The position numbers and the translations under genes were made by a program. Under the pieces are notes generated by a model. The model worked only from the letters and a program-made list of their open reading frames with translations, did not search any database and was not told the origin of the DNA. DNA of 64,000 nucleotides, from the NCBI GenBank assembly GCA_965208105.1, contig OZ242318.1:2816001-2880000 (forward strand), in the 5' to 3' direction. Below are positions 30,764 through 50,401 of the stretch, one piece after another; the first letter of the stretch is position 1, and the number at the start of each line of letters is the position of its first letter. The stretch is from Candidatus Latescibacterota bacterium (GTDB taxonomy: Bacteria > Latescibacterota > UBA2968 > UBA8231).

Positions 30764-30801
30764 GAGGATATCTCCTGACAGCGGCGGCCTGGGATGGGTG
30801 G

Positions 30802-34129: not shown

Positions 34130-34162
34130 TCTAATGATAATCTATTGTCATTAAGCAGTCAA
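34130..34162 (-). promoter_or_regulatory. Promoter with Fur/Zur-type operator
   Basis: Minus-strand TTGACT-17-TATCAT overlapped by TAATGATAAT-CT-ATTGTCATTA. Confidence 0.85.
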
Positions 34163-34209: not shown

Positions 34210-35286
34210 TCAATTGGAAAATGCCGCGTTCAGATTCTTCCGGTGCAGAATAAACCAAATCACAATGGGAGCGCCCAGAATCGAAGTCACGGCATTGAGC
34301 GGCAGCGCTATTTGACTGCCCGGCAAGCGGCCAATGAGGTCTGCAAACAAGGCCAGCGTTGCGCCCATGCACGTCACTGCAGGCATCAGCGCCCTGTGAT
34401 CAGAGGTGTGCAGCAGGCTCCGGCAAAGATGGGGAACAGCCAGGCCCAGAAAGGCGATGGGACCGCAGAACGCCGTTGTTGCCCCGGCCAACATCGAGGC
34501 GCTGATCAGGATATAGATGCGTACGCGTTTTACATTCAAGCCCATGCTTCGGGCGTAATCTTCGCCCAGCAACAGGGCATTGAGCGGCTTGATGCACAAA
34601 AAACCCACCAGAAGCCCCAGGGAGATCACAGACCCCAGAACGGGTATTTGTTTCCATGACACCCCTCCGAAACTGCCGAACGTCCATATGATGTAGGATT
34701 GAATCTGTTCGGGAATGCTGAAATAAATCAGAATGCTCACAAAAGCGCCCGTGGCATACCCGAACATCAGGCCCAGGATGAGCAGCGTCATGGCGCTTTG
34801 CACTTTTCGGGAAACCAGCAAAACGCAACCCAGCACCGTGCCCGCGCCCAGGCTGGCCGCTGCCGCAAGACTCAAATCGCCCAAAATTCCCAGCCCTACG
34901 ATGAGCGCGCCGCCCGCAGAACCCACCGCCAGCACCACGATGGCCACGCCCAGGCTCGCGCCTGCATTGATGCCCAGCACAAAGGGATCCGCCAGCGGGT
35001 TGCGAAACAGCGTCTGCATTTGCAACCCGCCGACGGAAAGCGCCGCACCCGCCAGTACCGCGGTGATGGTTCTTGGCAGGCGGATGGTGTGAACGATGGT
35101 GGGCCAGGCCGGGGTGGCGGTTTCTTTCCCCGTCAGGATCGCCAGGATATCCAGAAAGGGAATATGCACCGACCCCAGCGACAGGCTCAAAACAAAGGCT
35201 AAACACAGCAGTGGAAATAATCCCAGCATCATGATGGCCTGACGGGAGATTGCCGTTGGGGAGTTATGTGCTGTGATGACAGACAT
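34210..35286 (-). CDS. FecCD/BtuC-family ABC permease
   Basis: IRLPR, MQTLFRNPLADP..LG, LLLGEDYARSMG, GPIAFLGLAVPH. Confidence 0.93.
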   Translation of the reverse strand: MSVITAHNSPTAISRQAIMMLGLFPLLCLAFVLSLSLGSVHIPFLDILAILTGKETATPAWPTIVHTIRLPRTITAVLAGAALSVGGLQMQTLFRNPLADPFVLGINAGASLGVAIVVLAVGSAGGALIVGLGILGDLSLAAAASLGAGTVLGCVLLVSRKVQSAMTLLILGLMFGYATGAFVSILIYFSIPEQIQSYIIWTFGSFGGVSWKQIPVLGSVISLGLLVGFLCIKPLNALLLGEDYARSMGLNVKRVRIYILISASMLAGATTAFCGPIAFLGLAVPHLCRSLLHTSDHRALMPAVTCMGATLALFADLIGRLPGSQIALPLNAVTSILGAPIVIWFILHRKNLNAAFSN

Positions 35287-35577
35287 CGGAATCCGTCTCC
35301 TGAAGAAAAGCACTATGTGCGCGATGCATGCCGCACATGCAATACTTTTCCAGATTGCCAGGCGCCTCTGCTCAATATCGAAAAAGCACAAATCCGGCGG
35401 CGAGAATGGCAAAACGAGACAAACCGGACAGGCAAAATTGCATGTTCCCCTCACATTGCCAGCACTTCCACCCTGCGGGTCTGGGGCATCTGCCATCCCA
35501 GGGCCAGCGCATCGCAAACCGCTTCCAGCGGATGTTCAGATCGCACCTCAATTTGCTGGTAGCACAAAACCAGGCAT

Positions 35578-35706
35578 CGGACCGTGCTGCTCGTATTGGC
35601 GCTTCCAGCAGTAGTACGCCTCACGGGAGATACCGAAATACCTACGGGTCTTGGAAACATTCCCAGTCTCCTTGGCGTGCTCCGGCACCCTAAGCTTTCG
35701 GCTAAT
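35578..35706 (-). pseudogene. Transposase N-terminal HTH remnant (IS481-like)
   Basis: RKLRVPEHAKETGNVSKTRRYFGISREAYYCWKRQYEQHG; no catalytic domain follows. Confidence 0.7.
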
Positions 35707-35708
35707 GG

Positions 35709-36506
35709 TTACGCACTGCCCTGCGCCATCCATTCCTTGTTCCGGCGGATGCTCTCCTCTTGCGGAATAAGCGGGCAACTGGCACAATAATTCCCCTCCG
35801 GCATGAGATAGTACCGGCAGCAGGCGCTCCTGCGGTGGAAAACTTGCATACAGCCCTGATGCGATACGTCGTAAAACTGTGGACGCATCTGCTGGATCAC
35901 ATCATCGCCATCGAAAAAATGCTCTGCATCGGTCCATCCCGCATTTGGGGCATCCACATGTTGCATCACCTGTGCAAACTGGCTGCCCCAGGAAGACGTG
36001 ATCATGCCCCAGATTGCGCGAACGGAAAACCGCGACCATGCATGCAAAGCATCGACGACGGGCGTGGCCTGGTCCACCAGCGTTTGGCGCAAATACCGGC
36101 GAAGGTCATCCGTTTGGCGCTCGTTCGCACCGATTGCCCCTTCGGCCTGGTGCAGGGCCACGCGTTCGAACAGGCCGTTTTCGCCGAATTTGAGACTGAT
36201 ATTATCAAGCGACATATTGGGCACAGCCCGGCAGAGCAAAAAAGGCGCGATGGCCACCCCGGCAGACGAACCAAAACGCAACGCAAAAGAAGCAGCCAAT
36301 GACCGGCGGTCTTCGGCTTCTCGCCTCGCACCTAGTGCCTGAAGTAGGCTCCTGAAAGGAACGGCATCGGGAAAGAATAAATCCGATCCACGCAGCCACC
36401 CTCTTCCATTGGGCACCCCCAGAGCCACATCCCATTTAGGATGAAGGGTCTTGAGGTATGCATAGGCATTGGGAATAGATGAAACGGGTTGTATGGGAGC
36501 GTTCAA
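35709..36506 (-). CDS. FhuF-like ferric reductase with [2Fe-2S] cluster
   Basis: C-terminal CC-x10-C-x2-C (RSACCRYYLMPEGNYCASCP); AGGAG RBS with TTG start. Confidence 0.85.
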   Translation of the reverse strand: MNAPIQPVSSIPNAYAYLKTLHPKWDVALGVPNGRGWLRGSDLFFPDAVPFRSLLQALGARREAEDRRSLAASFALRFGSSAGVAIAPFLLCRAVPNMSLDNISLKFGENGLFERVALHQAEGAIGANERQTDDLRRYLRQTLVDQATPVVDALHAWSRFSVRAIWGMITSSWGSQFAQVMQHVDAPNAGWTDAEHFFDGDDVIQQMRPQFYDVSHQGCMQVFHRRSACCRYYLMPEGNYCASCPLIPQEESIRRNKEWMAQGSA

Positions 36507-36537
36507 TGTAATCTCCTGATTGAGCAGAAAACGGGTA

Positions 36538-39500
36538 TTACCATGTTTTTCTGCGCTGTCTTAACCAGCCGAAAGCCACCAGGAGCGCACTGATGATGCC
36601 TATTGCGAAATATGTGGTTTTGTGCGTTGACAGATGATCGGCGACCGTGCGTACAACATCCGCCATTTCGTATCCCGTCATCGGCTCTGCAGGTGCAGGC
36701 GGCAGATCATAACGTGCCTGGCGTGCAATGTTGATCGCATCCTGATAGGGCTGCGCCAGTGCCTGAACACCTGGTGTTTTGTTGAGCAATTCGGTTACAA
36801 ACGTTTCAAGGGATGGGCTGTTGCAGATACCCGAATTACAAGCCGGGCCGTGATCAGAAACGGACTGCGCTAACTGCTGGGCAACATCCTGTAAAACCTC
36901 ATCGGTTGCCTGCCAGTAGCCTTTGTGCGCCGCTTCCAAAAGCGTGGCCATCATCGTCTGTTCGGCATAGGGGTTGTTCTCGGAAAAATAATCCTCTAAC
37001 CCCAGATCGTATTCGTCTTTCATGTAAACTTGATGAATGCGTTTCCAATCCTCGTCGGAAACCAGATCGGGTGACGTGACTTCCCACACCCACATGGTTT
37101 CTGTGAACTCGGTCATATACCGCGCGCCATCATAACCGTGATCCATCATGCCTCGAATCCATTTGGGATTGAAATAGCGAGATCGCAATTCGCGCGAATA
37201 AAAACGCTCCAACGTTTCGACGCGCTCCGATTGGGGATTGCGCAAATTGTGGATGTAAAGATCGATTTTGCGGTCCGTGGTGTTGCGCACGGCCATGTTC
37301 ATGCCGCCAAGATAGGCGGCGACCATGGGATGGTCGAGCACGCCATACACGTTTGATGTGCGTCCGAATGAAGCAATTTCAACGGTTTCAATGTTCTGGC
37401 GAAACAAATCCTGAACGTATTCTCCCACGGTATTTTCGCCATAAGCATGGCTCATGCGCGTCATATAGAGATCGGATATTTTGCCGTCGTCCTCCCAGGT
37501 ACCGCCTGCGTGTATGGCAAACTGAATGGAGGGGGAGTATGCGCCCACGTTTTCGGAAAACACGCGGATACTTGCAAGAGATTGGGCCGACTCGGGGGAT
37601 GGCCCAGCAGAGGCCAGTTTTTGATAGGCTGCTTCGGTGTGTATGCGTACGATGTTATCGGGTTCATCTAATTCCGAGACCAATTTGACGGCTTTGTGAA
37701 TCAGACGGATTTTGTCCATGAAATGGTCGCGGTACGTGCCGGACGTGGTGACGAAAACATCCACGCGGGGCCGCTTGAGTTCGTGCGGGGGAATCACTTC
37801 AATGTCCGCAACCCAGCCACGCTTATTCCACACCGGGCGCACGCCGAGCAAGTAAAAAACCTGCGCTTCCAGAATGCCTTTGTTCTTTGTGATTTCAGAG
37901 GACCAGAGCACATAACCCACCCGCCGTGGATACGCTCCGTGCTTTTCCACGTGCTGGTTGAGCATGTCATCGGCCAGGCGTCGGCCCACTTCCCAGGCTT
38001 CGCGGGTGGGCATGGATCGGTGGTCGAAGTGATAGGGATTTCGTCCCGAGGGCAGGGCGTCGGGGTTGCGAATGGCATCATCCATTTCCCCGGGTTCGAT
38101 GAACCGGCCTTCAAGAGCGGATAAAATGCGGGGCACTTCTTCCCGCGCCGCCTCAATGCGCGCTTTGTAATCCAGTGCGCGCTGCAAATAGATTTCGATA
38201 TCTTCCGATGCGGCTTTGAGCTGCGTGCGCTGAATATCCTGCGTGGTTTCACCGCTAAGCAGAAGATCTGTGAGAATGATTTTGGCCAGCGTATCGGGAG
38301 AAACGTCGGCCCTGTGTGCAACAAGCGCTTCGCGGAATTCACGTCCCAGCATTGAGCGCACCATGTCAACGAGAGGCCGTCCCTCTGGAGGCACGCCGAG
38401 GGTATGCGGTCCATAGGGGATATGCTCGCGGTTGATTTCTTCAAGGTAAGTGCGGGTGGCTGTGGCAAGCTGATCAAACGGCGCCCCTTGAATATCCAGT
38501 CCCAGGTCGCGTGCCAGATGGAGGCGTTCGCACTCCTGGCGAATGCCTGTTTCCAGTTCGGCGCGCACCGCCGGCGGCAGATTTTCCCCCAAGCGGGCGG
38601 TCTTGTTGCGCAACTCGTGCAGGTTTTCATACAGTTCGGATGCGACAATTGTGGGCATGAATCCAATGGTTAAGGCGCTGGCCCGGCGCTTGCTCCCAAT
38701 GCCCGCATTGCCCTGGAGGGGTGTGGGATAAATGTGGGGCATATTGCCGATGAGCCTGCCCACCCAGTCGGTTCTGGCCGGCCCTTCCATTTTGCCCGGC
38801 ATGAGTGAAAGCTGGGTGAACATGGTGAGCATGGCATGGGGATTGTACACCTGCTGGAGCCACTCGAAAAAGGCGAAATACTGGTGGTGCGGCGGCAACT
38901 GGTCTTTGGAATACAAAACGTCCTCATCCTGTTTATAACCCCAGTCGGGGTGCGGCACCAGCAGCACGTTTCCAAACTGAATTTTGGGAATTGAGATCAT
39001 GCGCTGGCCGTCGCGCGCCGTATGCACCATGATACTGCCCGGCGGCGCCCCCCAGTTGTCGATCATTTCTCTTTGCTTTTTCTCAGGAAGTTCTCCAAAC
39101 CAGTTCAGATAGGTGTTTTCGGGAATGGTGATGGCATGTCCCTGCCCCACGCGCTTGCCCATTTCACCGGGCGCCCAGTTGCCCACGTTGGAACCCTGTT
39201 CGGCCATCATCCGGCTCAGTGTTTCCACGTCGGGCAGCGGCTTTTCTCCCACGTTATATCCCGCTTCTTTCAGGGCCTTCAGAATGTTCACCAGGCTGGC
39301 CTGGACATTTAAATAGAAATCGGGATCGCTGCCGATATTCGCCTTGCCTGCACCCTCGCTGTAATAGGGAATGACGAGCCGCTTCTCGCGATTGGACATG
39401 CGCCGCAGTTGCGCCCAGGCCAGCGCGCGTTCCACACGCCAGTCGAGCTGGTCTGGCATAATTTGATTTTTCGGCTGGCCGGTTTCATCCGCAACGCGCC

Positions 39501-40500
39501 CGGATATGACGATGGGTTCAATGATACCGTCGGTTTCGCTGTAAACGGCCTGAGGGGTCATATCGGGCGATAGCCCGCCGATGTTGTCGCGCCACTGATC
39601 CGGCGTGCCGGGATAGAAATTGATACCCGATAAAATGGGCACATTGAGCGCATGGGCATGCTGTTGCCCTTTTCCGTAGTCGAACCAGTTGATTTTCGTG
39701 CCGCAAAAAATCAGCGCATCCACCAGGCTTTTCCCATCCTCGATGAGATACGGATCAAACAGAAAACCGCCTTTCCCCATCAAAGGAAAAACTCGGTGGC
39801 CCCGGAGCTCAACATTGCGAACCAGGGAATCGACATATGCGGTATTGCCTTTGATATAGTTATCCTGGTAGAAGACGATGCCGATGTTCAAAGGATTTTT
39901 AGAGGGGCGATGCCGCTTTTGTCTGGCCTGCTCGCGCCAGTCGCGATAGGCGCGATGGCTAACGAACAATTCCGGGGCATCAGGATGGTAAAAGGCATGT
40001 TCCGGATATGCGATGGGCGGCTGCGTCTCGATGGGCAGAGCCAGAAGGTTTGCTCCGAGGTAATGCATCAGCCGCCGCACGTTTTCCCGGCTGCTGTTGG
40101 TCCAGTACTGTTCCAGCCAAGGATGGTGGTCCAGAGATACATTTCCCTGTATGTACCGGGGCTTGACAACCACCACCTTTGTCGCTGTTTTGGCCGCGTC
40201 GAACTGGTCGATGTGAAACCCGAGTTTCGCACCAATGCCCTCGGCGAAAATCAGGTCATATCTCGTCAAGTCGATGCCTTCAAATGAGGGAAACGGCGGT
40301 TTCCCATGGCTGTAAATATCCACATCCATATAGGATTCGAGTTCCCTGGCCGCCTGTTCAAGCTCCCAGAAAGCATGCAGGCTGATGACGGCAACCGCTG
40401 ACTTTTTCCTTTTTTGCGCCACGTCTTCCGTAGCGGTTTGACAGGCGCTCAAAACCGCCAGGATCAGCAAAAGCAAAACACATCCGATCCTTTTTTTCAC
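36538..40500 (-). CDS. cobN: CobN/Mg-chelatase-H family protein, exported and membrane-anchored (HmuS-like)
   Basis: PPHHQY, RNPDALPSGRN, LLGVRPVW, RPRVDV..TSGTYRD, RSRYFNPKWIRGMMDHGYDGA; lipobox LSAC after GTG start; C-terminal TM helix plus RQRRK. Confidence 0.9.
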   Translation of the reverse strand: MKKRIGCVLLLLILAVLSACQTATEDVAQKRKKSAVAVISLHAFWELEQAARELESYMDVDIYSHGKPPFPSFEGIDLTRYDLIFAEGIGAKLGFHIDQFDAAKTATKVVVVKPRYIQGNVSLDHHPWLEQYWTNSSRENVRRLMHYLGANLLALPIETQPPIAYPEHAFYHPDAPELFVSHRAYRDWREQARQKRHRPSKNPLNIGIVFYQDNYIKGNTAYVDSLVRNVELRGHRVFPLMGKGGFLFDPYLIEDGKSLVDALIFCGTKINWFDYGKGQQHAHALNVPILSGINFYPGTPDQWRDNIGGLSPDMTPQAVYSETDGIIEPIVISGRVADETGQPKNQIMPDQLDWRVERALAWAQLRRMSNREKRLVIPYYSEGAGKANIGSDPDFYLNVQASLVNILKALKEAGYNVGEKPLPDVETLSRMMAEQGSNVGNWAPGEMGKRVGQGHAITIPENTYLNWFGELPEKKQREMIDNWGAPPGSIMVHTARDGQRMISIPKIQFGNVLLVPHPDWGYKQDEDVLYSKDQLPPHHQYFAFFEWLQQVYNPHAMLTMFTQLSLMPGKMEGPARTDWVGRLIGNMPHIYPTPLQGNAGIGSKRRASALTIGFMPTIVASELYENLHELRNKTARLGENLPPAVRAELETGIRQECERLHLARDLGLDIQGAPFDQLATATRTYLEEINREHIPYGPHTLGVPPEGRPLVDMVRSMLGREFREALVAHRADVSPDTLAKIILTDLLLSGETTQDIQRTQLKAASEDIEIYLQRALDYKARIEAAREEVPRILSALEGRFIEPGEMDDAIRNPDALPSGRNPYHFDHRSMPTREAWEVGRRLADDMLNQHVEKHGAYPRRVGYVLWSSEITKNKGILEAQVFYLLGVRPVWNKRGWVADIEVIPPHELKRPRVDVFVTTSGTYRDHFMDKIRLIHKAVKLVSELDEPDNIVRIHTEAAYQKLASAGPSPESAQSLASIRVFSENVGAYSPSIQFAIHAGGTWEDDGKISDLYMTRMSHAYGENTVGEYVQDLFRQNIETVEIASFGRTSNVYGVLDHPMVAAYLGGMNMAVRNTTDRKIDLYIHNLRNPQSERVETLERFYSRELRSRYFNPKWIRGMMDHGYDGARYMTEFTETMWVWEVTSPDLVSDEDWKRIHQVYMKDEYDLGLEDYFSENNPYAEQTMMATLLEAAHKGYWQATDEVLQDVAQQLAQSVSDHGPACNSGICNSPSLETFVTELLNKTPGVQALAQPYQDAINIARQARYDLPPAPAEPMTGYEMADVVRTVADHLSTHKTTYFAIGIISALLVAFGWLRQRRKTW

Positions 40501-40530
40501 GTCCTCATTCCTTTCACTGCACATGGAGAG

Positions 40531-40875
40531 CTACTCTTTTTCGGGCACGTAAATCACACGTCCATCTTCGAGTTGATAGGCAATGCCCAGCCGGGTGCCG
40601 TTCCCGGACAGGGAATTCCCCGTTACCTTCCGGACTTTGATTTCGCGGTCTTTGCGCGGAATGACCTCGGTTTCACCCTGTGGCGTGGTTCGCACCAGGG
40701 TCCATTCCGCATCTGGGCGCAACAGCTCGTGCATGGGCAACAGCGCAAAAAGCGCCATGATGACGGCGACCACGAAGGCCATGCTGACATCGAATAAATT
40801 GGTTACGCCGGCCATCGGATCATGGCTGTTCTGACGCAACGCCTCCGAATGGTTGATTTTGTTCACAAAACGCAT
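40531..40875 (-). CDS. DUF2149 (HmuV-like) membrane protein
   Basis: DPMAGVTNLFDVSMAF, G.GTRLGIAYQLEDGRVIYVPE. Confidence 0.9.
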   Translation of the reverse strand: MRFVNKINHSEALRQNSHDPMAGVTNLFDVSMAFVVAVIMALFALLPMHELLRPDAEWTLVRTTPQGETEVIPRKDREIKVRKVTGNSLSGNGTRLGIAYQLEDGRVIYVPEKE

Positions 40876-40887
40876 GATGCCTCCCTC

Positions 40888-41451
40888 TCAAAAGACCTGT
40901 TCCGGGATAGATCTCACCTGGTCATTCCGCCTTTCAACGTGAAAGGCAAGGGCCTGAATATCTTCCCGAACCCACTTTTCCTTGACCAGCGCCAGCACAT
41001 AGGCCACCGTGCCGACCGCCAAACCGAGTACTGTCGTGGAAAAGGCGGTGACCATATTTCCAGACAGCGCGGGCAGATCGCCCTGCGACAATCCCTGAAG
41101 CGCGCCCGCCATGGGAATCAGGGTGCCGATCAGTCCGAGGGAAGGCCCCACGCGAATGGCGAACCGGACGCTATCCAGGGCGCGTGTGCTTTGCTGGTCA
41201 GCATCGTGAATTACTTCCTCCAGGTCGATTTCCAGGTGTGCGCCTGATTGGGCTTCGATCAGGGCATCGCATTGGGCCGTATATTTGGCACGCACATGAA
41301 ATCGCTTCTTGCGGCGTTGCAGACTTTCGCGAGCAAATTCACCCAGGCAGACCAACATCCAGCACGCGAGAAGCAACAGGGCGATTATGACCGGATAAAA
41401 CAGCAGGGAAGAGAGCATGTAAATAACCTGGGTGATTTGCAGGATTTCCAT
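40888..41451 (-). CDS. MotA/TolQ/ExbB family protein (HmuU-like)
   Basis: RVGPSLGLIGTLIPM, MVTAFSTTVLGL. Confidence 0.9.
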   Translation of the reverse strand: MEILQITQVIYMLSSLLFYPVIIALLLLACWMLVCLGEFARESLQRRKKRFHVRAKYTAQCDALIEAQSGAHLEIDLEEVIHDADQQSTRALDSVRFAIRVGPSLGLIGTLIPMAGALQGLSQGDLPALSGNMVTAFSTTVLGLAVGTVAYVLALVKEKWVREDIQALAFHVERRNDQVRSIPEQVF

Positions 41452-41474
41452 GAACGCCTCGGTCCTTATGGGAA

Positions 41475-42635
41475 TCAGGGAGCGATCTTGCGATAGTATT
41501 TCAACGTGTGGTTCGGCAGGATATGCGGATGAAAAATGTGGATCAGATCGGCCAGAATGAGATGCGGCTCCACAACGCCGGATTCCCAGTAATCATTGGC
41601 TCCCGAAGCGTTGACCCTGGCATTGAAATTGTATATTTGACCGTTTTGGAACGCTTTGAAGGCGCTGTAGCGCGCATCTTCCAGCAGCATATCGGATCGG
41701 GCATGCCATTTGTTGCGCCCGGTGATCCAGAAGTCCGCGGTGGCCGCCTTTTCATAAACCGCCTCAAAATCCAGGGGCAAACTGCCCTGAGTTTCATCTT
41801 GTGCCCACACATATCTTGCGCCTGCAGTTTTGAGCAACTGCGCGACATAGCTTTTCCCTCCGGCGACATACCACGTGCCGCGAACCAGCGCCCCGCCAAA
41901 AACCAGGGGTTTTGCCGTCTCCGCCAACCCGTTCATCAAATCGGCATAACGCGCATACTGCGCGGCAATATCATCGAACATCTGTTCGGCCAGCGCCTCC
42001 TGACTGAAAAACGCCGCCGTGAATTTCAGCCATTCGGTTCTGCCCAGAAGGGTGGGTTCGACATATTCGGCATTGATCATCACGGGCACGCCGGCCTCTT
42101 GCAGGGCCGGATGGGAAATGTACCGACCATTGGCAGGGGCCACGGCCATTACCAGATCCGGGTTGAGTTGCAGCACCCTTTCCAGATCGATCTGACTGCC
42201 TCTGCCAATGCCGGGCAAATGGCCGGCCTCCACTTTCCGGCGCAGGTCGGAATCGTAAATGCCGTCTGGATTGCCGACCGCAACAAGAGACTCGTATTGA
42301 CCGAGCAATTTAAGATGCGGCAAATGCGTGGTTGACAGCACGGCGATCGTCTGGATAGGCACGCGAATGATGCGTTCTTTTTTATACGCCTTTGGGACCG
42401 GCGTGCCTTTGGGTATCAGCACATAGCGAAAGGATTCGGAAGCGTCCGGCCAGGGTTGGGTCACATCGACAATCTTGACATCCCCCTCATAGGTGATCGC
42501 AAAGCATTGGGCATAGCGCACGTGCGCTTTGTCCTGAACGGGATTGGGCCGCGTGGTTGAAAATTCATCGGCCTTGAGGTCCGCCCCCCAAAAGCCCATC
42601 GCACAAAACCAAACTGAAAGCATGCGCAGGTTCAT
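41475..42635 (-). CDS. Iron-chelate/cobalamin-type ABC substrate-binding protein
   Basis: Signal peptide; LSTTHL, DLERVLQLNPDLV, EYVEPTLLGRTEWLKF, NDYWESGVVEP. Confidence 0.88.
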   Translation of the reverse strand: MNLRMLSVWFCAMGFWGADLKADEFSTTRPNPVQDKAHVRYAQCFAITYEGDVKIVDVTQPWPDASESFRYVLIPKGTPVPKAYKKERIIRVPIQTIAVLSTTHLPHLKLLGQYESLVAVGNPDGIYDSDLRRKVEAGHLPGIGRGSQIDLERVLQLNPDLVMAVAPANGRYISHPALQEAGVPVMINAEYVEPTLLGRTEWLKFTAAFFSQEALAEQMFDDIAAQYARYADLMNGLAETAKPLVFGGALVRGTWYVAGGKSYVAQLLKTAGARYVWAQDETQGSLPLDFEAVYEKAATADFWITGRNKWHARSDMLLEDARYSAFKAFQNGQIYNFNARVNASGANDYWESGVVEPHLILADLIHIFHPHILPNHTLKYYRKIAP

Positions 42636-42663
42636 CGTTTTCTCTTTCAATGGCAAAACGGGA

Positions 42664-43479
42664 TCACAACGGAATTTGTTGATAGGTTGGAGAAACAGGA
42701 CGCTGGGCGATGAGGTCCCAATCGAAAATCAGAACAGTTGACCGGGGCGATGTAAATGAGAGCAGGCGCTCGCTTTTTTTGATGACGGCGCTTTCGGCAT
42801 CGGTGAAATCGAGATGGACATCTTTGCCGGTTCGGTTGCACACCACAAGCGGCAGTCCCGTATCGCACGCACGCTGCTCCCATTCGCCGTTCGGGCCATA
42901 CAAACCCGGCGCCCACGCAGCCGGGGAAACGAGCAGTTGCGCACCCTGCGTTTTGAGCCTGTTTGCCCAGGTATCCGGATAGGCATCAGCGCAGATCAGC
43001 ACACCGGCTTTCAAAGGTGCAGTGGGAATGGGCACCGCGTTCACTCCTGGTGTCGCCCATGATTCGGAACCGGGGATCACGCTGATTTTTCGGTGTTTTC
43101 CAATACAGATGCCGCGATGGTCGAACACAGAAACCGCATTGTAACACCGCCCGTCCTGTGGATCGCGTTCGGGATGTGACAAAAAGACGACCAGATCGAA
43201 TTGGGCGCTGATGCGTTGAATTTTTTGCATCCAGGCATCCGGTTGCGGCGCAATCCAGTCCGTTCCAATGCGTTCCGCAAAGGCATAACCACAGGTGCAA
43301 AGCTCCGGTGTGAGCACCCAGTTGGCCTTGAAATGCGCCGCAACGGCCAGCCCCGTTTCCACCAGGCGTTGATTGTGCGCCAGATCACCGGGAATGGGTG
43401 CCACATGCAAACAGGCTATGCGCAATATTTCGGGCGGTCCTTTAATCAGCGCGCCAGGATTCTTTCTGCATTGCGGCAA
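42664..43479 (-). CDS. Carbon-nitrogen hydrolase (nitrilase superfamily)
   Basis: Catalytic triad motifs LTPEL, HRK, GVLICAD; start uncertain. Confidence 0.88.
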   Translation of the reverse strand: MPQCRKNPGALIKGPPEILRIACLHVAPIPGDLAHNQRLVETGLAVAAHFKANWVLTPELCTCGYAFAERIGTDWIAPQPDAWMQKIQRISAQFDLVVFLSHPERDPQDGRCYNAVSVFDHRGICIGKHRKISVIPGSESWATPGVNAVPIPTAPLKAGVLICADAYPDTWANRLKTQGAQLLVSPAAWAPGLYGPNGEWEQRACDTGLPLVVCNRTGKDVHLDFTDAESAVIKKSERLLSFTSPRSTVLIFDWDLIAQRPVSPTYQQIPL

Positions 43480-44464
43480 TCAGATCATAAACGGAATGGT
43501 GCTCCCGAACGGAACCGTTGCGCCTGGTACACCAGGTTATGCGCTGGTCCTGGGAAAAAATCTCGATATGCAAATCCGCATGCGCACTGTTCACCTGAAA
43601 ACCAGCCCGTTCCAGTGCGCGCGCCGTCCAGAAAGCCGGTCGTCCATGCCCTGAAAGCCCAACCGCTTGGCCGATATGGGCATGGTTTTTAAATGCGCCG
43701 GTATCGGCGTCAAAACGCACGCCATCGCTGTCGAAAGCCGCTTCAAAAGCGCCATTCAGAATCAAATCTTCCGGCGCCCCAACATGGATCGGGCCACCCG
43801 CAGGCATGAGCCAGATGCAGTCGGCGCATCGCAGGGCGAGGTCGAGATCGTGGGTTGACAACAGGATGGCTTTCTGCGTGGTGTGCGCCAGATTTTTGAG
43901 CAAAGCCATGATTTCGACGCGGCGGGGCAGATCCAGAAAGGCCGTAGGCTCATCCAGCACCATCAATTCGGGTTCCTGGGCCAGCGCCCGCGCGATCATG
44001 GCTTTCTGGCGCTCGCCATCGCTGAGCTCGGCCACATTGCGGTGCGACAGGTGCTGTGCCCGTGCAGCCTGGATTGCCCAGGAAACCGCCTGCTCGTCCG
44101 GTTTGGAAAGCCGGCCTGTCCAATCCGTATGGGGATACCTCCCCAGCGCCACCAGGTCTCGCACCGCCAAAATGCCCACGCTGACGCGGTCTGTGAGCAC
44201 CACGCTGAGTTTGCGGGACAGGTCTCTGGCCGGCAAACGGGCCACATCCTGGCCGGACAGATAAACACATCCCTTTAATGGAGGCTGCATGCCGACCAAC
44301 GTGCGCATCAGCGTGGATTTGCCCGCGCCGTTGGGGCCGAGCAAACAGACGAATTCGCCGCGATGGAGTGAGACGGATACTGTGCCGGCCACAATGTGCG
44401 GAGCCTGCCGGGCTGGCGCGTAACCGATGGTGAGGTTTTCTGCTGTCAAGACGGGTTCCGTCAC
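43442..44464 (-). CDS. Iron-chelate/cobalamin ABC transporter ATPase
   Basis: GPNGAGKST, LSDGERQK, LDEPTAFLD, STHDL; GTG start. Confidence 0.93.
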   Translation of the reverse strand: MTEPVLTAENLTIGYAPARQAPHIVAGTVSVSLHRGEFVCLLGPNGAGKSTLMRTLVGMQPPLKGCVYLSGQDVARLPARDLSRKLSVVLTDRVSVGILAVRDLVALGRYPHTDWTGRLSKPDEQAVSWAIQAARAQHLSHRNVAELSDGERQKAMIARALAQEPELMVLDEPTAFLDLPRRVEIMALLKNLAHTTQKAILLSTHDLDLALRCADCIWLMPAGGPIHVGAPEDLILNGAFEAAFDSDGVRFDADTGAFKNHAHIGQAVGLSGHGRPAFWTARALERAGFQVNSAHADLHIEIFSQDQRITWCTRRNGSVREHHSVYDLIAAMQKESWRAD

Positions 44465-44589
44465 AAGAGTTCCAGTCTCTTTAGAGACGCTGCACAAACA
44501 GACAGGAGTGCTGCAGGAGGCAGGAGAGCAAAGGAGCGAGGCTTTCTCCCTTGCCTCTTTCTCGGTATTTCCTGCGCTCCTGCAGCAGT

Positions 44590-45159
44590 TTATCCGTGGT
44601 GGAATTTCCGGGCCTGCTGATCGAACGGATCGGGAGCAAGCCCCAGGTGCGTTTTGCGAAGCGCGTTCCACATCCCCAGGCGCGGCCAGTCCGGCGGATC
44701 GAGCTTTTTGAATTCCGGCACGCTCACAAAAAACGGACTGGGGAAAAACACTGTCATTTGCTGTTCGCCTTTGCCGTTGAACATGTGGAAACCCCAGCTC
44801 GAGGGGTGGCCATCGGGATTGAGGAGGCGGTAAAACTCCGCGCGCGATGTCCTACGCCGCCGAGCCAGTTCGGGCGATGCGCCCTTAAATTCGCCGATGC
44901 ACAGGTGAAAATGCCAGGGGCCAAAATCCACGGTAAGGTAGCCGTTGTTCAACGTGATGCGTTTGGGCGCATTGGGGGCGCCCACTTCCCAGGCCGCGCC
45001 CTGAATGAGCGGGCCAAAGTGAATGTCCTGCCAGTAATTTTGAAAAACATCCTCCAGAATGGTTTTGAGATTGTCTGCGGACAGATCGACCGGAAACACC
45101 TCCATCTTACCCCCGCCTTCGGCTTCTATGATTTTCCCTCTTGGAGTTGTAAGGTCCAT
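44590..45159 (-). CDS. Hypothetical protein, HutX/ChuX/HemS-like heme-carrier fold suspected
   Basis: GYLTVDFGPWHFHL and SWGFHMFNGKGEQQMTVFF resemble the HutX GYFNL..HGHL and S..I.FF..GE..FK patterns; AGGAGG RBS. Confidence 0.65.
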   Translation of the reverse strand: MDLTTPRGKIIEAEGGGKMEVFPVDLSADNLKTILEDVFQNYWQDIHFGPLIQGAAWEVGAPNAPKRITLNNGYLTVDFGPWHFHLCIGEFKGASPELARRRRTSRAEFYRLLNPDGHPSSWGFHMFNGKGEQQMTVFFPSPFFVSVPEFKKLDPPDWPRLGMWNALRKTHLGLAPDPFDQQARKFHHG

Positions 45160-45180
45160 GACAGCCTCCTTTATAGTGGA

Positions 45181-47559
45181 TTAGAAACGCACCGCATATT
45201 GCATGCGCGCGGAGCGGCCCGGCAGGTTATAGCCGCGCTTTTCGTAATAGTTTTCGTCGGTTAGATTGTTCAAATAAAGCGACACGGTATAGCGTTCGCC
45301 GATTTTGAAAGACGATACCAGATCTGCGACCATAAATGCCGGATATTGTACCTCCGGACGTTTGGCGTCGGTCCAATCCGTATCTTTGCGGTTGCCCACA
45401 TAGCGTCCGGTCAGGCGCGTGTTGAAAAAATGTCCGTCGTCATATTCCGCGCCCCAGGACAGGCTGGTATTTGCCACATTGTGAATGTCCCGGCGCGTTT
45501 CGGCACCCGTGGCCGGGGTTACCGTCACATCTTCGGCATTGAGCGTGTGGGTGGCATTGGCGAAAAAGCGAAAGGTATACGCATAATTGCGACGGGCGCC
45601 CAGGTCATAAGAGGCTTTCCACTCGATGCCATGCATGTTGGATCGGTTGGCATTGACAAAGGTCGTGCGGGAGGCAATCGTGTCGCCGGATGCCGTAACC
45701 TGTCCAACCGGGTTGGTGGTTTGTCGCGTGATGCGGTCGTTGACGCGGGTGCGGAAAAACGTGATGTCGATATCCAATCCCATATCCGGCCTCGTAAGTC
45801 CTGCACCCAGATCAAACGTGATGCTGTTTTCAGGATCTAGATCGGCATTGCCTTCAGTAATGGCCACGTCCCCGGTGCCGGTGCCGGTTTCGGAAAAACC
45901 GGCCACATTGAAGGCATCAGGGGTAACAAAAGCTCGGCCTATAGTGCTATGCACATGCAAGCCCGATGATTCTGTGCGATATTTGAAACCCGCGCTTGGA
46001 TTGAATGTGGTAAAGGTTTCTTCGCCCGGATTAAAGGATGTGAGCAGGGGCGTTTGCTTGCCGTCGAAGGTAATGCGATCTAGCCGTCCTCCGGCCGTGG
46101 TCGTGAGGTGCTCATTCAGGAAATTGAAACTTCCTTCGATGAAAAGCGCTTGCGTATAGATGCCGTAATTGGGACTAAATGGGGCACGAGGCGTCTCGGC
46201 TGCGCTCCAGCTTTTCCCCTCGGTATTGGACGAGTTCCAATCTGCGCCAAGCGTGAGTAAGTGCGGCCCCAAAGCGAAGGCGTCCTGTATTTGAGCGCCA
46301 AACCAGGTGTTGCGCCGGGTAAAGGATATGAATGGTATGCCGCTTAGATTGTAGGACTCGGAGACTTCTTCTGACCCATATGTCTTGAACTGGAGGGCGT
46401 GGTTGCCCACCAGCCCCGAAAACTGGACGTCGCCTGATATATTCTCGGCATTTTTCCGGCCGGCTCGTTCGGTGCCGTAAAAAATATCTCCGGGGGTTTC
46501 TACATTGCGCGCGATAAAGCGGCTGACCGAACTGTCCAGCCGCCAGATCTCTTCTATCTGATAACCCAGCCGGAGACGACCCTGGTTTTTGCTGAATTTG
46601 GTGTTGGGGCGCACCTCGCCGTCTCCCAGTTCGGTTTTGGTGTCTGTGGTGCCATCGGCATAGGTGACATCGGCCTCGTCGCTGCCGACCATGCCCTGGA
46701 ACACATTGCCTTTTCCAATGCGATAGTCCTTGTTCTGGTCGGAAACGTTGATGCCCAGATCAAAATCGAACCCGTTGCTGATGCGTCCGCCAGCAGACAG
46801 GGATGCGCCGAATGTCTCAAAAGATCCGTACGATGCAGAGAGGTCAATGCGCGGCAAATAAGTGGATTTCCGGCTGATGATATTGACCACGCCTCCCATG
46901 GCCTGAGTGCCGTACAGCGCCGATCCCGGCCCTTTCATCACTTCGATTCGTTCGATATTGTTGAGATCGATGGTCGCTAGATTCGAGGCCCCGGCATGCC
47001 GCCCGTCGATCAATAGCAGGCTGCGCTGATTCAGGCCGGAAAACTGCGGGCGAAACCCGCGAATGCCCACGCCGGACAGTAGGCCGGGATATTGAATAAT
47101 ATCAATGGCCGTTTGTTTTTTGAGCGCATCGGTCAGATCATCGGCCACGGTGCGATCCAGATCCGTTCTCGATATGACATCTATTTTTTGAGGCACCTTT
47201 TCAAGATGCTGCGCACTGCGCCTGGCCGTAACCACCACATCCTCCAGTTGCACTGCAATGGGCGTCATGGCGATAACTCTTTCTTTTTGTAGAAATTCTC
47301 TGGAAACAATGCGCGTGAGATAGCCCGTGTGGGAAATTGCAATGCGTTGATTTGTCTCAACAGCCAAAGAGAAAGCACCCTTAGCATCGGTTGTGGTCCC
47401 CGTGCTGGTCCCCTCAATTCTGACATTGGCTCCCACCAGGATTTGGCGGGTCTGGGAATCGATTACTGTGCCTTGACGCTGGGCAAATGCATTGCCGTGA
47501 ACAAGGCAGAACAAAAGCCCCAAAATTAAAGGGAATGAAAACGGCCTGATGTCTTTCAT
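45181..47559 (-). CDS. TonB-dependent receptor (BtuB/heme-receptor-like) with N-terminal carboxypeptidase-regulatory-like domain
   Basis: DVVVTARR, IERIEVMKGPGSALYG..AMGGVVNII, NNLTDENY..GYNLPGRS, terminal Phe. Confidence 0.93.
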   Translation of the reverse strand: MKDIRPFSFPLILGLLFCLVHGNAFAQRQGTVIDSQTRQILVGANVRIEGTSTGTTTDAKGAFSLAVETNQRIAISHTGYLTRIVSREFLQKERVIAMTPIAVQLEDVVVTARRSAQHLEKVPQKIDVISRTDLDRTVADDLTDALKKQTAIDIIQYPGLLSGVGIRGFRPQFSGLNQRSLLLIDGRHAGASNLATIDLNNIERIEVMKGPGSALYGTQAMGGVVNIISRKSTYLPRIDLSASYGSFETFGASLSAGGRISNGFDFDLGINVSDQNKDYRIGKGNVFQGMVGSDEADVTYADGTTDTKTELGDGEVRPNTKFSKNQGRLRLGYQIEEIWRLDSSVSRFIARNVETPGDIFYGTERAGRKNAENISGDVQFSGLVGNHALQFKTYGSEEVSESYNLSGIPFISFTRRNTWFGAQIQDAFALGPHLLTLGADWNSSNTEGKSWSAAETPRAPFSPNYGIYTQALFIEGSFNFLNEHLTTTAGGRLDRITFDGKQTPLLTSFNPGEETFTTFNPSAGFKYRTESSGLHVHSTIGRAFVTPDAFNVAGFSETGTGTGDVAITEGNADLDPENSITFDLGAGLTRPDMGLDIDITFFRTRVNDRITRQTTNPVGQVTASGDTIASRTTFVNANRSNMHGIEWKASYDLGARRNYAYTFRFFANATHTLNAEDVTVTPATGAETRRDIHNVANTSLSWGAEYDDGHFFNTRLTGRYVGNRKDTDWTDAKRPEVQYPAFMVADLVSSFKIGERYTVSLYLNNLTDENYYEKRGYNLPGRSARMQYAVRF

Positions 47560-47794
47560 AATGATTCCTCCTGAAATCAATGGGATGACGTGAACGGTAT
47601 GGCCTTGATCGGGCCTGCGGTCACCACTACCTGTCGTTGCCTTCTCTTCCTTCCTTTTTGAACCCAGGATCAGGTTTGCCTGTCATCTGCCGCCATGTTG
47701 CACTCCTTCTTTTTTCTCTTGATTTGCTGTAAGCAAGTGGCAACCCATAGCTGATGTTCATTTCCAGTCCGGCCTGCCGCTCGATCTCGGTTGG

Positions 47795-48265
47795 TCAGAG
47801 CTGGGTGAGACCGGGGGCGTCACCATAGACCTTCCGGGGATCAAATACCTTCTGCGTCTCCGTGAATCCCAGTGGCTGGCCGGCCTGGTCGCCGAAGGGC
47901 ACGGCGCGGTAGAAACAGGAGCGATACCCTACATGGCAACTGGCCCCGCCCTGGACGTCCACGCGCAGCCAGATACAATCCTGGTCGTCATCGATCCGGA
48001 TTTTGCGGACTCGCTGCACCAGGCCGCTCGTTGCGCCCTTGTGCCAGAGGCATTTTCGGCTCCGGCTCCAATAGACGGCCTCGCCCAGAGTGATCGTTTG
48101 AGTGAGCGCCTCGGCGTTCATGTAGGCATGCATGAGCACTTCGCCGGATGTGAAGTCCGTGGTAACTACGGGGATCAGCCCGTGCTCATCGAACTTGGGG
48201 GCCAGATCGACTCTTTCCTCGACCTGCTCGACGCTCTGTCTATCCGAGAAGGGCGAAATGCTCAT
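47795..48265 (-). CDS. hisI: Phosphoribosyl-AMP cyclohydrolase, DDDQD variant
   Basis: [31 protein letters not shown]. Confidence 0.93.
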
Positions 48266-48291
48266 TTGTTCTCCTGCCTCTCCAGCCTTGA

Positions 48292-48669
48292 CTAAAGGGT
48301 GATAACCTGATCAGGCAGGTTGCCACTCAAGGCGCCATAGAGCTGAGGGAAGCAGCCTGCGGACACCCCCTCAACGGTTCCCTTCGCCGTGACTTCACCC
48401 TTGCCACACTGTTCAAGCGTGCCTTCGGCCAAGTTGCGGCGCACGGCGCACTGGTCACACATCATCAACAGGATGCCGCGTTTTCGTGCGACCTTCGACA
48501 AACGCTCTCCTACCGGGTCACCCGAGCGCAGGACGAAGGTGTTGTCATCGAAGAAAAACATCCCGACGACCTCGGCGCCGTGATAGCCGCCTTCGAGTTG
48601 GGGCAGGATCATTGTTGCCAGCTGAAAGGTTGAAGCCATGTTGGAGCGGAAGATGTAGGCGACCTTCAT
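48292..48669 (-). CDS. DsrE-related protein (SaoD-like)
   Basis: [29 protein letters not shown]; AGGAG RBS. Confidence 0.75.
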
Positions 48670-48786
48670 GTTCTGTTCTCCTGTTGGTTGTGCGTCTCAG
48701 CATTGCATAGGTGAAAGCTCAGGTTTGTTTGGCAGCGAGACACCACCGCAAATTGACCGTGGATCAAGCGAGGGCAGCAATTCGTG

Positions 48787-48822
48787 AAATGATAATAATA
48801 ACTCATTATCATTTTTGAGCAA
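48787..48822 (-). promoter_or_regulatory. Promoter with Fur/Zur-type operator
   Basis: AAATGATAAT-AATAACTC-ATTATCATTT; minus-strand TTGCTC-16-TATTAT. Confidence 0.85.
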
Positions 48823-48938
48823 TCAAATACCGAACTTTTTTTTACAAGTCGATGAGACCGCCGAGCCCCTTATGCCTGCCCGCGACCAACTTGCAACTCG
48901 CCTGCCTCAAGCTGACGCTAACGGCCCCTCATCCTTTT

Positions 48939-50126
48939 CTAAGCACGTGCCCTTGCTGCCTCGACCAACCGGTCGCCGGCTCGTCTCGCTCCGGCAATGT
49001 TTCGGGAAGCGGGCCCCAGTTCGAGCTCTGCGAGAGGGCCCGAGACGTGAATGCGCGGATGCCAGCGAAGCGCGGAGTCCACGATGGGGTAGCCGCAGCG
49101 CGCGCACGGCAATGAGACCGAGGCGATCAACGCATCGACCATCGATCCGCCAGGGCGAGTCGATGCGAACCCAGTCGCGAGCAGAACGCGCTCCGCTTCT
49201 AGCTCTGCCTGGTTAGCGAGCCGCAACAGGAGACCATCACGGCGCGCATCGAACTCTTCAACCTCGCCATCGTGCCAGCGGAGCAGGTCCCTTCCGATGG
49301 CCCGGCGAAGCGCTCGCCGGACGTCGGGGGGCACCGAACCTTTGTGGCGCGCTTCAGCGATCAGGGTCCGACGACGATCGAAGCTCCGTTCGCGGCGGAA
49401 GCCCGTCATGAACTTCGGACCGAGCCAGCCCGGATCGCTGTCGAATTGATGCTGACGCAGGGTGTGGCGCGAGACGAGATGGACGCTATGGCCTTCTTCC
49501 ACAAGGCGGAGCGCTACCTGGCCCGCCGAGATACCGCCGCCGATGACCGCGACGGTCTCGCTTGACGACGGCCAGCCGTCGAACCCCTGCTCGAAAACAT
49601 GGTGTACCCGAGCGTGACTCCGCGGCGCCCAATCCGGCCACTCGGGCTGTTCGCTCCCGCCGATGGCCAACACGAGGTTCTGCGCTGCGATCTCGCGCCC
49701 GCTCGAGAGCTGAACACCGATACCCTCACGGTCGACCGAGCACCTCGTGGCCCGATCCTGGATGTGGAGGTTTGCGAGCCCGAAGGTCTCCACCACCTGG
49801 TCGCAGTGCGCATTGAAGAGTGCCAGGGCGGGCCGGTCGAAGGGGGGTGCGAACAGCCCGGTCTTTCGGCGCTTGCGTTTCTTGCGTTTCCCCGCGAAGC
49901 GCAGAAGCGAGTAGGGGTCGAGGTCAAGGTGATGGACCCCCGGTGAGCGCAGGTGGGTCATCCCGGTCGTGTCGGCGCAGCTGCGCCAGCGCGCCAGCAG
50001 CTGGTTGCTTGGATCCACGATGCGGAGTCGTTCGGGGGCGACACCGGATTCTCCAAGCAGACGCGCGGCTATGTGAACGCCGTGGATCCCGCCCCCGATG
50101 ATCAGCCAATCCAGTGCCCCCGACAT
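48939..50126 (-). CDS. FAD/NAD(P)-binding oxidoreductase (N-hydroxylase-like flavoprotein)
   Basis: IIGGGIHG, HLRSP.VHH, VIGGGISAGQ, LLATG, ELELGP..RNIAGAR. Confidence 0.85.
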   Translation of the reverse strand: MSGALDWLIIGGGIHGVHIAARLLGESGVAPERLRIVDPSNQLLARWRSCADTTGMTHLRSPGVHHLDLDPYSLLRFAGKRKKRKRRKTGLFAPPFDRPALALFNAHCDQVVETFGLANLHIQDRATRCSVDREGIGVQLSSGREIAAQNLVLAIGGSEQPEWPDWAPRSHARVHHVFEQGFDGWPSSSETVAVIGGGISAGQVALRLVEEGHSVHLVSRHTLRQHQFDSDPGWLGPKFMTGFRRERSFDRRRTLIAEARHKGSVPPDVRRALRRAIGRDLLRWHDGEVEEFDARRDGLLLRLANQAELEAERVLLATGFASTRPGGSMVDALIASVSLPCARCGYPIVDSALRWHPRIHVSGPLAELELGPASRNIAGARRAGDRLVEAARARA

Positions 50127-50131
50127 CTCAG

Positions 50132-50299
50132 TCAGCTTCCGCAGCCACAAGCGCTGCGATGTTGGCCAGCAACCACGCGGACGCAGCAAACAACTGCAAC
50201 CTCGTTGAGCAGGGCGGTCTTTCCGGCTCCCAAGAATCCGGACAATACCGTGACGGGCAGGCGGGGATCGTAGGGGGGGGGTGTTTCTTCGCGCTTCAT
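50132..50299 (-). pseudogene. COG0523 GTPase 5' fragment
   Basis: [22 protein letters not shown] followed by an unrelated Cys-rich tail and a stop. Confidence 0.8.
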
Positions 50300-50401
50300 C
50301 GGGGTTTCGTCCAGATTTGCAGCAGAAAGCTCCGGTTTGCTTGGCCGCGAGACATCGCCGCGGATTGGCGGTGAATCAAGGGAGGGTAGCAATTCTTGAT
50401 T

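Follow-up and report, generated by a model that had tools for sequence, protein, structure and literature searches.

Within a 64,000-nucleotide stretch of the genome of a Candidatus Latescibacterota bacterium (GCA_965208105.1, contig OZ242318.1, positions 2,816,001 to 2,880,000; the whole stretch is called the window below), ten minus-strand open reading frames (ORFs) at 34210..47559 form a cassette which, on balance, we interpret as a horizontally acquired composite for the uptake and handling of corrinoids (cobamides or cobinamide-type tetrapyrroles), its position suggesting control by zinc. The cassette is comprised of two interleaved modules and an amidase that belongs to neither. Module A includes an ExbB-like protein, DUF2149 and a CobN-like protein; module B, a TonB-dependent receptor (TBDR), an ATP-binding cassette (ABC) importer, DUF7676 and an FhuF-like protein. 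We treat these as two modules because they occur apart in loci of other genomes. The evidence comes from the gene content, the predicted compartments of the proteins, the loss of conserved motifs, and homology and gene context in other genomes.

An earlier note on this DNA had described the cassette as a system that imports a metalloporphyrin or a corrinoid and removes its metal with an HmuS-like protein and reductive help from FhuF. Its account of the gene content holds: all ten ORFs are present and co-oriented in the order it gave (ORF list; Pfam and NCBIfam families), and the families are as named there, except for one ORF labeled HutX-like. The two-module make-up and the zinc-related flanks had been missed. 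All ten ORFs are full length with complete Pfam domains. The components, from the first gene of the cassette to the last, are:

45181..47559, minus strand: TonB-dependent receptor, cassette gene 1 (Pfam CarbopepD_reg_2, Plug and barrel; signal peptide); module B
44590..45159, minus strand: DUF7676 (Pfam PF24724, 213 bits); module B
43442..44449, minus strand: ABC importer ATPase of the BtuD/FecE type (Pfam ABC_tran); module B
42664..43479, minus strand: nitrilase-superfamily amidase, predicted cytoplasmic (Pfam CN_hydrolase, 68.7 bits)
41475..42656, minus strand: substrate-binding protein, predicted periplasmic, BtuF-like, cluster A-II (Pfam Peripla_BP_2; hydrophobic N-terminus); module B
40888..41451, minus strand: ExbB/MotA-like proton-channel protein (Pfam MotA_ExbB, 49 bits); module A
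40531..40875, minus strand: DUF2149 (Pfam PF09919, 86 bits); module A
36538..40524, minus strand: CobN-like protein, 1328 aa (Pfam CobN-Mg_chel PF02514, 972 bits); module A
35709..36506, minus strand: FhuF-like [2Fe-2S] protein (Pfam FhuF_C, 26.5 bits); module B
35518..35708, minus strand: remnant of the N-terminal helix-turn-helix (HTH) of an insertion sequence (IS)-type transposase, translation ..RYFGISREAYYCWKRQYEQHG, between the FhuF-like gene and the permease gene
34210..35313, minus strand: ABC permease of the FecCD/BtuC type, last cassette gene (Pfam FecCD, 261 bits); module B

From the receptor to the permease, the junctions between the genes are 21, 140, -38, 7, 23, 12, 6, 31, and 395 nt, seven of the nine being at most 31 nt or overlapping; the transposase remnant sits in the 395-nt junction before the permease gene. 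As noted previously, the block is more AT-rich than its neighbors. Its GC content is 0.555, compared with 0.614 and 0.603 in the flanks (a difference of ~6 points) and 0.616 in the genome, and 8% of equal-sized genome windows have GC at or below this value. Among the ~60 window ORFs scanned, we found neither an AAA+ chelatase partner nor a corrin-specific biosynthesis gene, again in agreement with the earlier description.

As judged from homology and gene context, module B is corrinoid-linked. The closest homologues of four of its proteins are encoded in a genome of the same class (G026), the identity being 56% for the receptor, 55% for the substrate-binding protein, 66% for the permease, and 62% for the ATPase, and are accompanied by a DUF7676 fragment. 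On one side of these homologues lie genes for CbiB, CobO, a canonical-type CobN, a ChlI/ChlD-like AAA+/VWA protein, and a nitroreductase, and on the other side, genes for a GHMP kinase and CobQ. In the cassette's own genome, the closest paralogues (substrate-binding protein, 52% identical; permease, 62%; ATPase, 50%) are found behind the only cobalamin riboswitch above the threshold, in an operon that also encodes a receptor, a PduO-type adenosyltransferase, CbiZ, and CbiB. The cassette permease is 62-66% identical to the B12-linked permeases, compared with 35% for the permease of the heme locus. The cassette receptor yields 627 bits with the receptor of a riboswitch-led DUF7676 operon (L124) and 624 bits with the receptor of a CobN module (L010). 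The top NCBIfam model is a corrinoid ABC transporter ATPase for the ATPase and BtuC for the permease, both below the cut-off, and a heme/hemoglobin receptor family for the receptor, far below the cut-off (226.6 vs. 316.85).

To place module B in other genomes, 80 metagenome loci around DUF7676 were fetched and scored with the window proteins. They contained the ATPase in 37 cases, the FecCD permease in 34, the substrate-binding protein in 20, the receptor in 15, and the FhuF-like protein in 10; CobN and CN_hydrolase were found in none of the 80. Forty DUF7676 loci were scanned with Rfam for cobalamin riboswitches, and 16 loci were annotated with Pfam. A riboswitch heads the operon, on the same strand, in 18 of the 40 and lies elsewhere in the locus in four more, and CbiZ, CbiB or adenosyltransferase directly precedes DUF7676 in four of the 16 annotated loci. 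In three soil contigs (L123, 2511-4009; L125, 9060-12232; L141, 9050-10555) the genes for an FhuF-like protein and DUF7676 come directly after a cobalamin riboswitch; in L125, they are followed by a gene of the PPE family. The Peripla_BP_2, FecCD and ABC_tran proteins thus form a set with the closest relatives in cobalamin contexts, as is characteristic of a BtuFCD-type corrinoid importer, and corrinoid would be the predicted substrate. Of the two substrates named in the earlier note, it is the corrinoid that this comparative evidence backs.

In module A, the CobN-like protein has a lipobox (LSAC at Cys28) and a C-terminal transmembrane (TM) helix (1303-1321), and therefore is predicted to be exported and membrane-tethered, like HmuS. 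DUF2149 has a single TM helix at residues 30-48, preceded by FDVS with the Asp at the helix start, and probably is the single-pass partner of the ExbB-like protein. We fetched 80 genome loci around relatives of the CobN-like protein and scored their ORFs with the window proteins. The clade of the window's CobN-like protein is represented by 26 bacterial loci. In 25 of these, the ExbB-like and DUF2149 genes adjoin the CobN-like gene, and the full set of receptor, ExbB-like, DUF2149, and CobN-like genes is found in 22 of the 26. DUF7676, the FhuF-like protein, and CN_hydrolase were found in none of the 80 CobN loci.

The solved structure closest to the CobN-like protein is HmuS (9d26, 460 bits), compared with 375 bits for CobN (7c6o), and all NCBIfam CobN equivalogs score below the cut-off. 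We built a tree of 95 CobN-family ORFs, into which all 94 ORFs from the loci used that had at least 900 aa and matched at E<=1e-20 were taken; it included one canonical-type CobN, the CobN of G026, ChlH/BchH and PA1923 being outside it. The CobN-like protein of the window falls in a clade of 33 members (support 0.993), which takes in five archaeal sequences and all the bacterial ones that are linked to a receptor. The four HmuS-type sequences group in a distant clade of their own (support 1.0). The window protein is also far from the one canonical-type CobN included, so that the phylogenetic check proposed in the earlier note came out without a grouping with canonical CobN.

None of the 33 clade members has a histidine in the HxGxHG loop, compared with 59 of the 61 sequences outside the clade in which the second histidine is kept. 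In the window protein, the HFG(T/A)HG loop of HmuS is replaced by LTMFTQLSLMPGK, with no histidine and a two-residue deletion, and the LSLDHxxEFMGG motif of HmuS by GVLDHPMVAAYLGG, where an ungapped alignment puts Met at the position of His-1209 and Ala at that of Glu-1212. The residues Met-79 and His-254, reported as the heme ligands of HmuS at the head/neck interface (PMC12583661), fall on Ile97 and Thr276 in the HMMER alignment with 9d26, in which this region is poorly aligned. The methionine-rich insertion of HmuS is reported to span residues 780-898 in B. theta, with a minimum length of 22 in the family (PMC12583661); the region of residues 700-905 has no aligned counterpart in the window protein, and residues 720-775 of the latter contain two Met in 56. 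As His-538 of HFG(T/A)HG is reported to be essential for HmuS turnover (PMC12583661) and the clade lacks the HmuS histidines, the chemistry of its members is probably not HmuS-type heme dechelation, and the HmuS-type dechelatase proposed earlier loses its basis. Rather, the protein belongs to a histidine-less clade that appears to be of the BtuS/PA1923 type.

Regulation of this clade looks mixed, with a B12 riboswitch in some loci and zinc-type neighbors in others. Eight CobN loci were scanned directly for riboswitches, and two were positive. One is L007, whose CobN-like homologue (44% identical) scores higher than any other in the 80 genome loci; its receptor gene is separated by 3 nt from the end of tandem cobalamin riboswitches. 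In the other, L027, a cobalamin riboswitch drives a divergent receptor/ABC operon. In L016-L018, L039, and L050, the CobN module is flanked by ZnuA, COG0523 or DUF3299, these labels being the best phmmer matches to window proteins. Two further observations concern the CobN family at large. A Burkholderiaceae metagenome-assembled genome, outside Bacteroidota, encodes an HmuS-type protein with the HFGTHGSLEF and SLDHVYEFMGG motifs (L222, 5110-9024, minus strand). In five archaeal loci (L013, L019, L029, L031, and L032, from ANME-1 and methanogens), the histidine-less CobN-like gene lies beside at least one paralogue that keeps the histidine motif.

DUF7676 is the ORF that had been labeled HutX-like. 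Pfam assigns it to DUF7676, with no match to ChuX_HutX (PF06228) even at E<=10, an hhalign comparison of the DUF7676 alignment with eight HemS/ChuX domains gave a probability of 1.1%, and a profile search of the PDB gave zero matches. The sole lead of this kind came from a language-model look-alike search with a 53%-identical DUF7676 homologue, which pointed to ChuX/HutX (score 0.89, 184 shared features). The homologues share the invariant motif WHFHxCIG and retain 50-60% identity across Chloroflexota, Actinomycetota, Pseudomonadota, and Bacteroidota. With neither a signal peptide nor a TM helix predicted, DUF7676 appears to be a small cytoplasmic protein, and we consider it a candidate corrinoid carrier or processing factor. 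No paper naming DUF7676 was found in a full-text literature search.

The FhuF-like protein scores above the cut-off for FhuF_C (26.5 vs. 20.5 bits), and below it for the N-domain (18.4 vs. 25.2) and TIGR03951 (45.7 vs. 63.85). Its C-terminal motif C-C-x10-C-x2-C is that of a [2Fe-2S] protein, and the cysteines are invariant in nine homologues. No signal peptide was found, and the protein is predicted to be cytoplasmic. It adjoins DUF7676 in 10 of the 80 DUF7676 loci, and in one riboswitch-led operon ending with DUF7676 (L153, 4501-6780), the importer ATPase is fused to the FhuF_C [2Fe-2S] domain in a protein of 759 aa. This makes it a candidate reductase for the imported cofactor. By contrast, reductive help to the CobN-like protein, as suggested earlier, would have to cross between two predicted compartments, and pairs two proteins that do not meet in any of the 80 CobN loci.

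The amidase has TPEL, HRK, and LICAD segments that align with what we take to be the positions of the Glu-Lys-Cys triad in the Nesterenkonia amidase 3hkx. Its homologues in Nitrospira, Entotheonellia and others are 54-60% identical. As it is absent from all 160 related loci (80 CobN and 80 DUF7676), the amidase is a lineage-specific addition to the cassette.

The cassette lies within a zinc-starvation island. One flank carries ZnuC, ZnuB, ZnuA, and a Fur-family gene, and further out a second Fur-family gene, a ZnuD-like receptor, and two COG0523 GTPases, one of which matches the ZigA equivalog of NCBIfam with 629.6 bits at a cut-off of 600 bits. The other flank carries a HisI paralogue, a SaoD/DsrE-family gene, a third COG0523 gene, DUF3299, a MacB-type ABC pair, and ZrgA. 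HisI paralogues and COG0523 are reported as classic members of Zur regulons (PMC2770081), and a second HisI is encoded elsewhere in the genome. The HisI/SaoD pair is directly upstream of the cassette and co-oriented with it. The elements around the cassette that bear on its control are:

47795..48265, minus strand: HisI paralogue (NCBIfam HisI, 155 bits, cut-off 126)
48292..48669, minus strand: SaoD/DsrE-family gene (NCBIfam DsrE_rel_ELSE, 205 bits, cut-off 152)
48788..48813, no strand assigned: palindrome AATGATAAT-N8-ATTATCATT, 0 mismatches, the best copy genome-wide; a candidate Zur box 1.2 kb upstream of the cassette
34133..34152, no strand assigned: second copy of the palindrome, 1 mismatch, between the permease gene and znuC, overlapping a minus-strand promoter-like site

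The palindrome AATGATAAT-N2/8-ATTATCATT has 19 matches with at most four mismatches in the 4.85-Mb genome, compared with 2-9 in three shuffles, and the four best sites genome-wide (21295, 34133, 48788, and 50400) are all within the window. Another palindrome, TGAGAATnATTCTCA, is spread over the genome (13 matches with at most two mismatches vs. 2-3 in shuffles) and is likelier to be the iron Fur box than the island palindrome. We found no terminator-like site on the minus strand between the SaoD/HisI pair and the receptor gene. In L005, a contig with a close copy of the cassette, the latter starts 140 nt behind the ZigA orthologue. Since the cassette has no riboswitch and is co-oriented behind zinc-regulon genes within a zinc-starvation island, it is most likely turned on by zinc shortage (Zur) and not by B12 shortage, as far as its position tells. 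This hints that the bacterium takes up B12-like compounds when zinc is short. The literature search for a regulatory link between zinc and B12 returned only the "cobalamin synthesis protein" labels of COG0523, and no direct link.

Some other features of the window are recorded here. The palindromes at 48788 and 50400 are followed by two paralogous leaders of ~100 nt (48680-48790 and 50290-50400, minus strand), which precede the SaoD/DsrE gene and an FAD-oxidoreductase gene, respectively, and match no Rfam family. At 25-30 kb from the cassette lie the gene for HemB/ALAD, a general tetrapyrrole gene (8119-9096, minus strand), and that for an M24 peptidase of the methionine-aminopeptidase type (4060-4896, minus strand); both are typically metal-dependent enzymes.

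The full ten-gene set was found on only one other contig, L005 (C63 of genome G039), at 91-96% nucleotide identity over ~12 kb and with intact frames for nine genes. The same is true of the combination of CobN, DUF2149, FhuF and nitrilase, which the earlier note had proposed to look for in gene neighborhoods. The region 35313-35704 of the window, with the IS remnant, is missing from L005. Any match to the CobN family was seen in three of 41 related genomes, and not in the genome from the same genus. Together with the low GC content, this suggests that the cassette was acquired horizontally.

The genome itself has one CobN-family gene only, a B12 salvage operon, and one protein with a B12-binding domain above the cut-off; CbiC was not found in it. 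A separate heme locus at 303-312 kb encodes a TBDR, an HmuY-like protein, a two-domain HemS, a FecCD permease, and an ATPase. By these features, the organism seems to salvage corrinoids and to have a heme system of its own. As a side observation, nine loci on its contig (G000:C1) have short Meth_synt_2 (core-MetE-like) ORFs of ~340-400 aa, e.g., at 765129-766112, and no Met_synt_B12 domain was found in the genome.

From these data we infer a corrinoid substrate, and roles for the individual proteins as follows. The TonB-dependent receptor would bring the corrinoid into the periplasm, and the Peripla_BP_2 protein, the FecCD permease, and the ATPase would carry it into the cytoplasm. There, the FhuF-like [2Fe-2S] protein may reduce the cobalt center, DUF7676 may carry or pass on the cofactor, and the amidase, which takes the place that CbiZ has in other loci, may modify a side chain. 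In the periplasm, the CobN-like lipoprotein, with its own ExbB-like/DUF2149 proton-channel pair, would work on the same corrinoid or on the metal in it. A bolder version, which we regard as a long shot, is cobamide piracy under zinc starvation: corrinoids would be imported and dismantled, and the freed cobalt would stand in for zinc. In that version, the periplasmic histidine-less CobN-like machine would be powered by the proton-channel pair, and the FhuF-like protein, DUF7676, and the amidase would finish the work in the cytoplasm.

Other explanations need to be weighed against the corrinoid composite. The receptor and the ABC importer could take in zinc or cobalt bound to a metallophore, with the proton-driven periplasmic CobN-like protein stripping or handing over the ion, and no tetrapyrrole involved. 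The zinc island and its palindromes are in line with this, as are the zinc-type neighbors of the CobN module in L016-L018, L039, and L050, the P. aeruginosa systems PA1922-25 and PA2911-14, which are reported to be Zur-regulated and thought to be importers of free or chelated zinc (PMC4542158, PMC10393844), and the loss of the tetrapyrrole-facing histidines, which fits a changed substrate. Still, the closest homologues of the receptor, the substrate-binding protein, the permease, and the ATPase are in cobalamin clusters or behind cobalamin riboswitches, and both the 18 DUF7676 operons counted above and L007 are riboswitch-led, which makes metallophore uptake rather unlikely. Import of heme or another metalloporphyrin by an Hmu-like system, in which the CobN-like protein would be an HmuS-type dechelatase supplied with electrons by the FhuF-like protein, is very improbable. 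It could account for HmuS as the best match among the solved structures, for the common architecture of receptor, CobN-like, ExbB-like, and DUF2149 genes, for the top NCBIfam model of the receptor, far below its cut-off as it is, and for the language-model lead from DUF7676 to ChuX/HutX. However, the His-534/His-538 motif is absent in all 33 clade members, both heme ligands align with other residues and the methionine-rich insertion is absent, the HmuS-type sequences form a clade of their own, the predicted compartments keep the FhuF-like protein apart from the CobN-like one, and the genome has a dedicated HmuY/HemS heme locus, whose permease is much less similar to the cassette permease than the B12-linked ones are. 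Therefore, of the interpretation proposed in the earlier note, the import of a metallo-tetrapyrrole stands, while HmuS-type dechelation with the help of FhuF and the conservation of the combination do not.

The cassette could also be a decaying mosaic, that is, a recently transferred patchwork, partly or wholly non-functional, with a gene order produced by IS-mediated rearrangement and not by selection. The low GC content, the patchy distribution, the unique gene combination, the transposase remnant, the DUF7676 fragment in G026, and the state of the ATPase gene in L005 all agree with this. But the ten ORFs of the window are full length with complete domains, nine genes have remained in frame in L005, and seven of the nine junctions are tight, and we consider such decay improbable.

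The composite corrinoid reading has its own difficulties. Eighteen of the 40 scanned DUF7676 loci have no riboswitch, and 14 of these also have no B12 gene. The loss of the conserved histidines makes it doubtful whether the CobN-like protein handles a tetrapyrrole at all. Among the zinc-type labels, "ZnuC" in L034 and L053 is a weak one, being a best match among ABC ATPases, and ZrgA and AztC are weak as well, since they score below the NCBIfam cut-offs. No cobalamin riboswitch was found in the window (0 Rfam matches at the gathering score, and none at E<=1 in 47400-50700). The 214 nt that precede the receptor gene contain no copy of the palindrome either; the nearest one, at the head of the SaoD/HisI pair, is found 1.2 kb upstream, so that zinc control would have to come from read-through and position only. 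Iron control of the cassette is possible too, as the island palindrome resembles the classical Fur box and the only two Fur-family genes of the genome, at 20518-21006 (plus strand) and 30383-30811 (minus strand), are both in the window, 10 kb apart. The sole RNA run, a metatranscriptome, contains 0.07 of the sampled words and has no bearing on expression; the other runs are of unknown type and stored as contigs. Neither the combination of ten genes nor the addition of the amidase is shared outside this lineage. Finally, the ATPase gene is mostly deleted in L005, the sole close copy, and the IS remnant interrupts the copy in the window, because of which the mosaic may be decaying.

Exported CobN-like proteins that have an ExbB-like/DUF2149 pair to themselves occur widely, and the heme-specific HmuS branch is the only one for which assays have been made. 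The cassette physically joins the non-HmuS branch to a corrinoid-type importer, among zinc-starvation genes, and thereby puts the question of what PA1923-type proteins do into concrete terms: corrinoid binding, zinc response, and cobalt balance. It also means that labeling histidine-less CobN-like proteins as cobaltochelatases or dechelatases is unsafe. Moreover, the B12 regulon appears to take in DUF7676 and a family of FhuF-like [2Fe-2S] proteins. If cobamide piracy were true, it would represent the first case of cobalt being removed biologically from a corrin, and would explain the Zur control of PA1922-25 and the accumulation of cobalt in the znuA mutant of P. aeruginosa.

Among the known systems, we rejected the canonical cobaltochelatase CobN, as the window protein is predicted to be exported and no AAA+ partner was found among the ~60 window ORFs, and the HmuS-type heme system, as its hallmarks are absent and a separate heme locus exists. 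The six-gene hmu operon of Bacteroidota, hmuYRSTUV (9d26; PMC12583661), is similar in that a TonB receptor and a pair of the ExbB-like/DUF2149 type are reported to accompany a CobN-family protein that is exported and membrane-bound. It differs in having the HmuY hemophore, the only HmuY-like gene noted here being that of the heme locus, and its HmuS differs in the HFG(T/A)HG loop, Met-79, His-254, the methionine-rich insertion, and its place in the tree.

The FhuF siderophore-iron reductase has the same C-terminal C-C-x10-C-x2-C [2Fe-2S] motif as the FhuF-like protein, but the N-terminal domain of the latter is below the family cut-offs, and the FhuF-like protein is accompanied by DUF7676 and importers of the B12 type rather than by genes for hydroxamate siderophores. 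The BtuS family of CobN-like proteins received its name from Rodionov et al. (2003), according to PMC6460266, where it is set apart from CobN and ChlH and is proposed to function in metalloporphyrin salvage. Its B12 link is seen in the riboswitch-led L007, whereas the window copy has no riboswitch. Unlike our reading of the window, the experimentally studied BtuS1/2 of B. fragilis act in heme-iron assimilation.

The P. aeruginosa operon PA1922-PA1925 has the same four families, namely a TonB receptor, a CobN-like protein, MotA/ExbB, and DUF2149, the last being PA1925 (PMC9431628), and is likewise linked to zinc-starvation genes (PMC4542158, PMC9431628, PMC10393844, PMC11761036). It is reported to be Zur-regulated and to be upregulated 44- to 147-fold when znuA is mutated (PMC4542158); the second of the two P. 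aeruginosa systems, PA2911-14, is of the FecCD type. Compared with PA1922-PA1925, the window has a different gene order, no Zur box directly upstream, and the ABC importer, DUF7676, the FhuF-like protein, and the amidase interleaved with the four families. The other half of the cassette is most similar to BtuB-BtuFCD systems with the salvage genes CbiZ, CbiB, and PduO: the receptor, Peripla_BP_2, FecCD, and ATPase components are the same, and the closest homologues and paralogues are found in such clusters. In the cassette, the riboswitch, CbiZ, CbiB, and adenosyltransferase of these systems have given way to an amidase of another superfamily and the CobN-like module.

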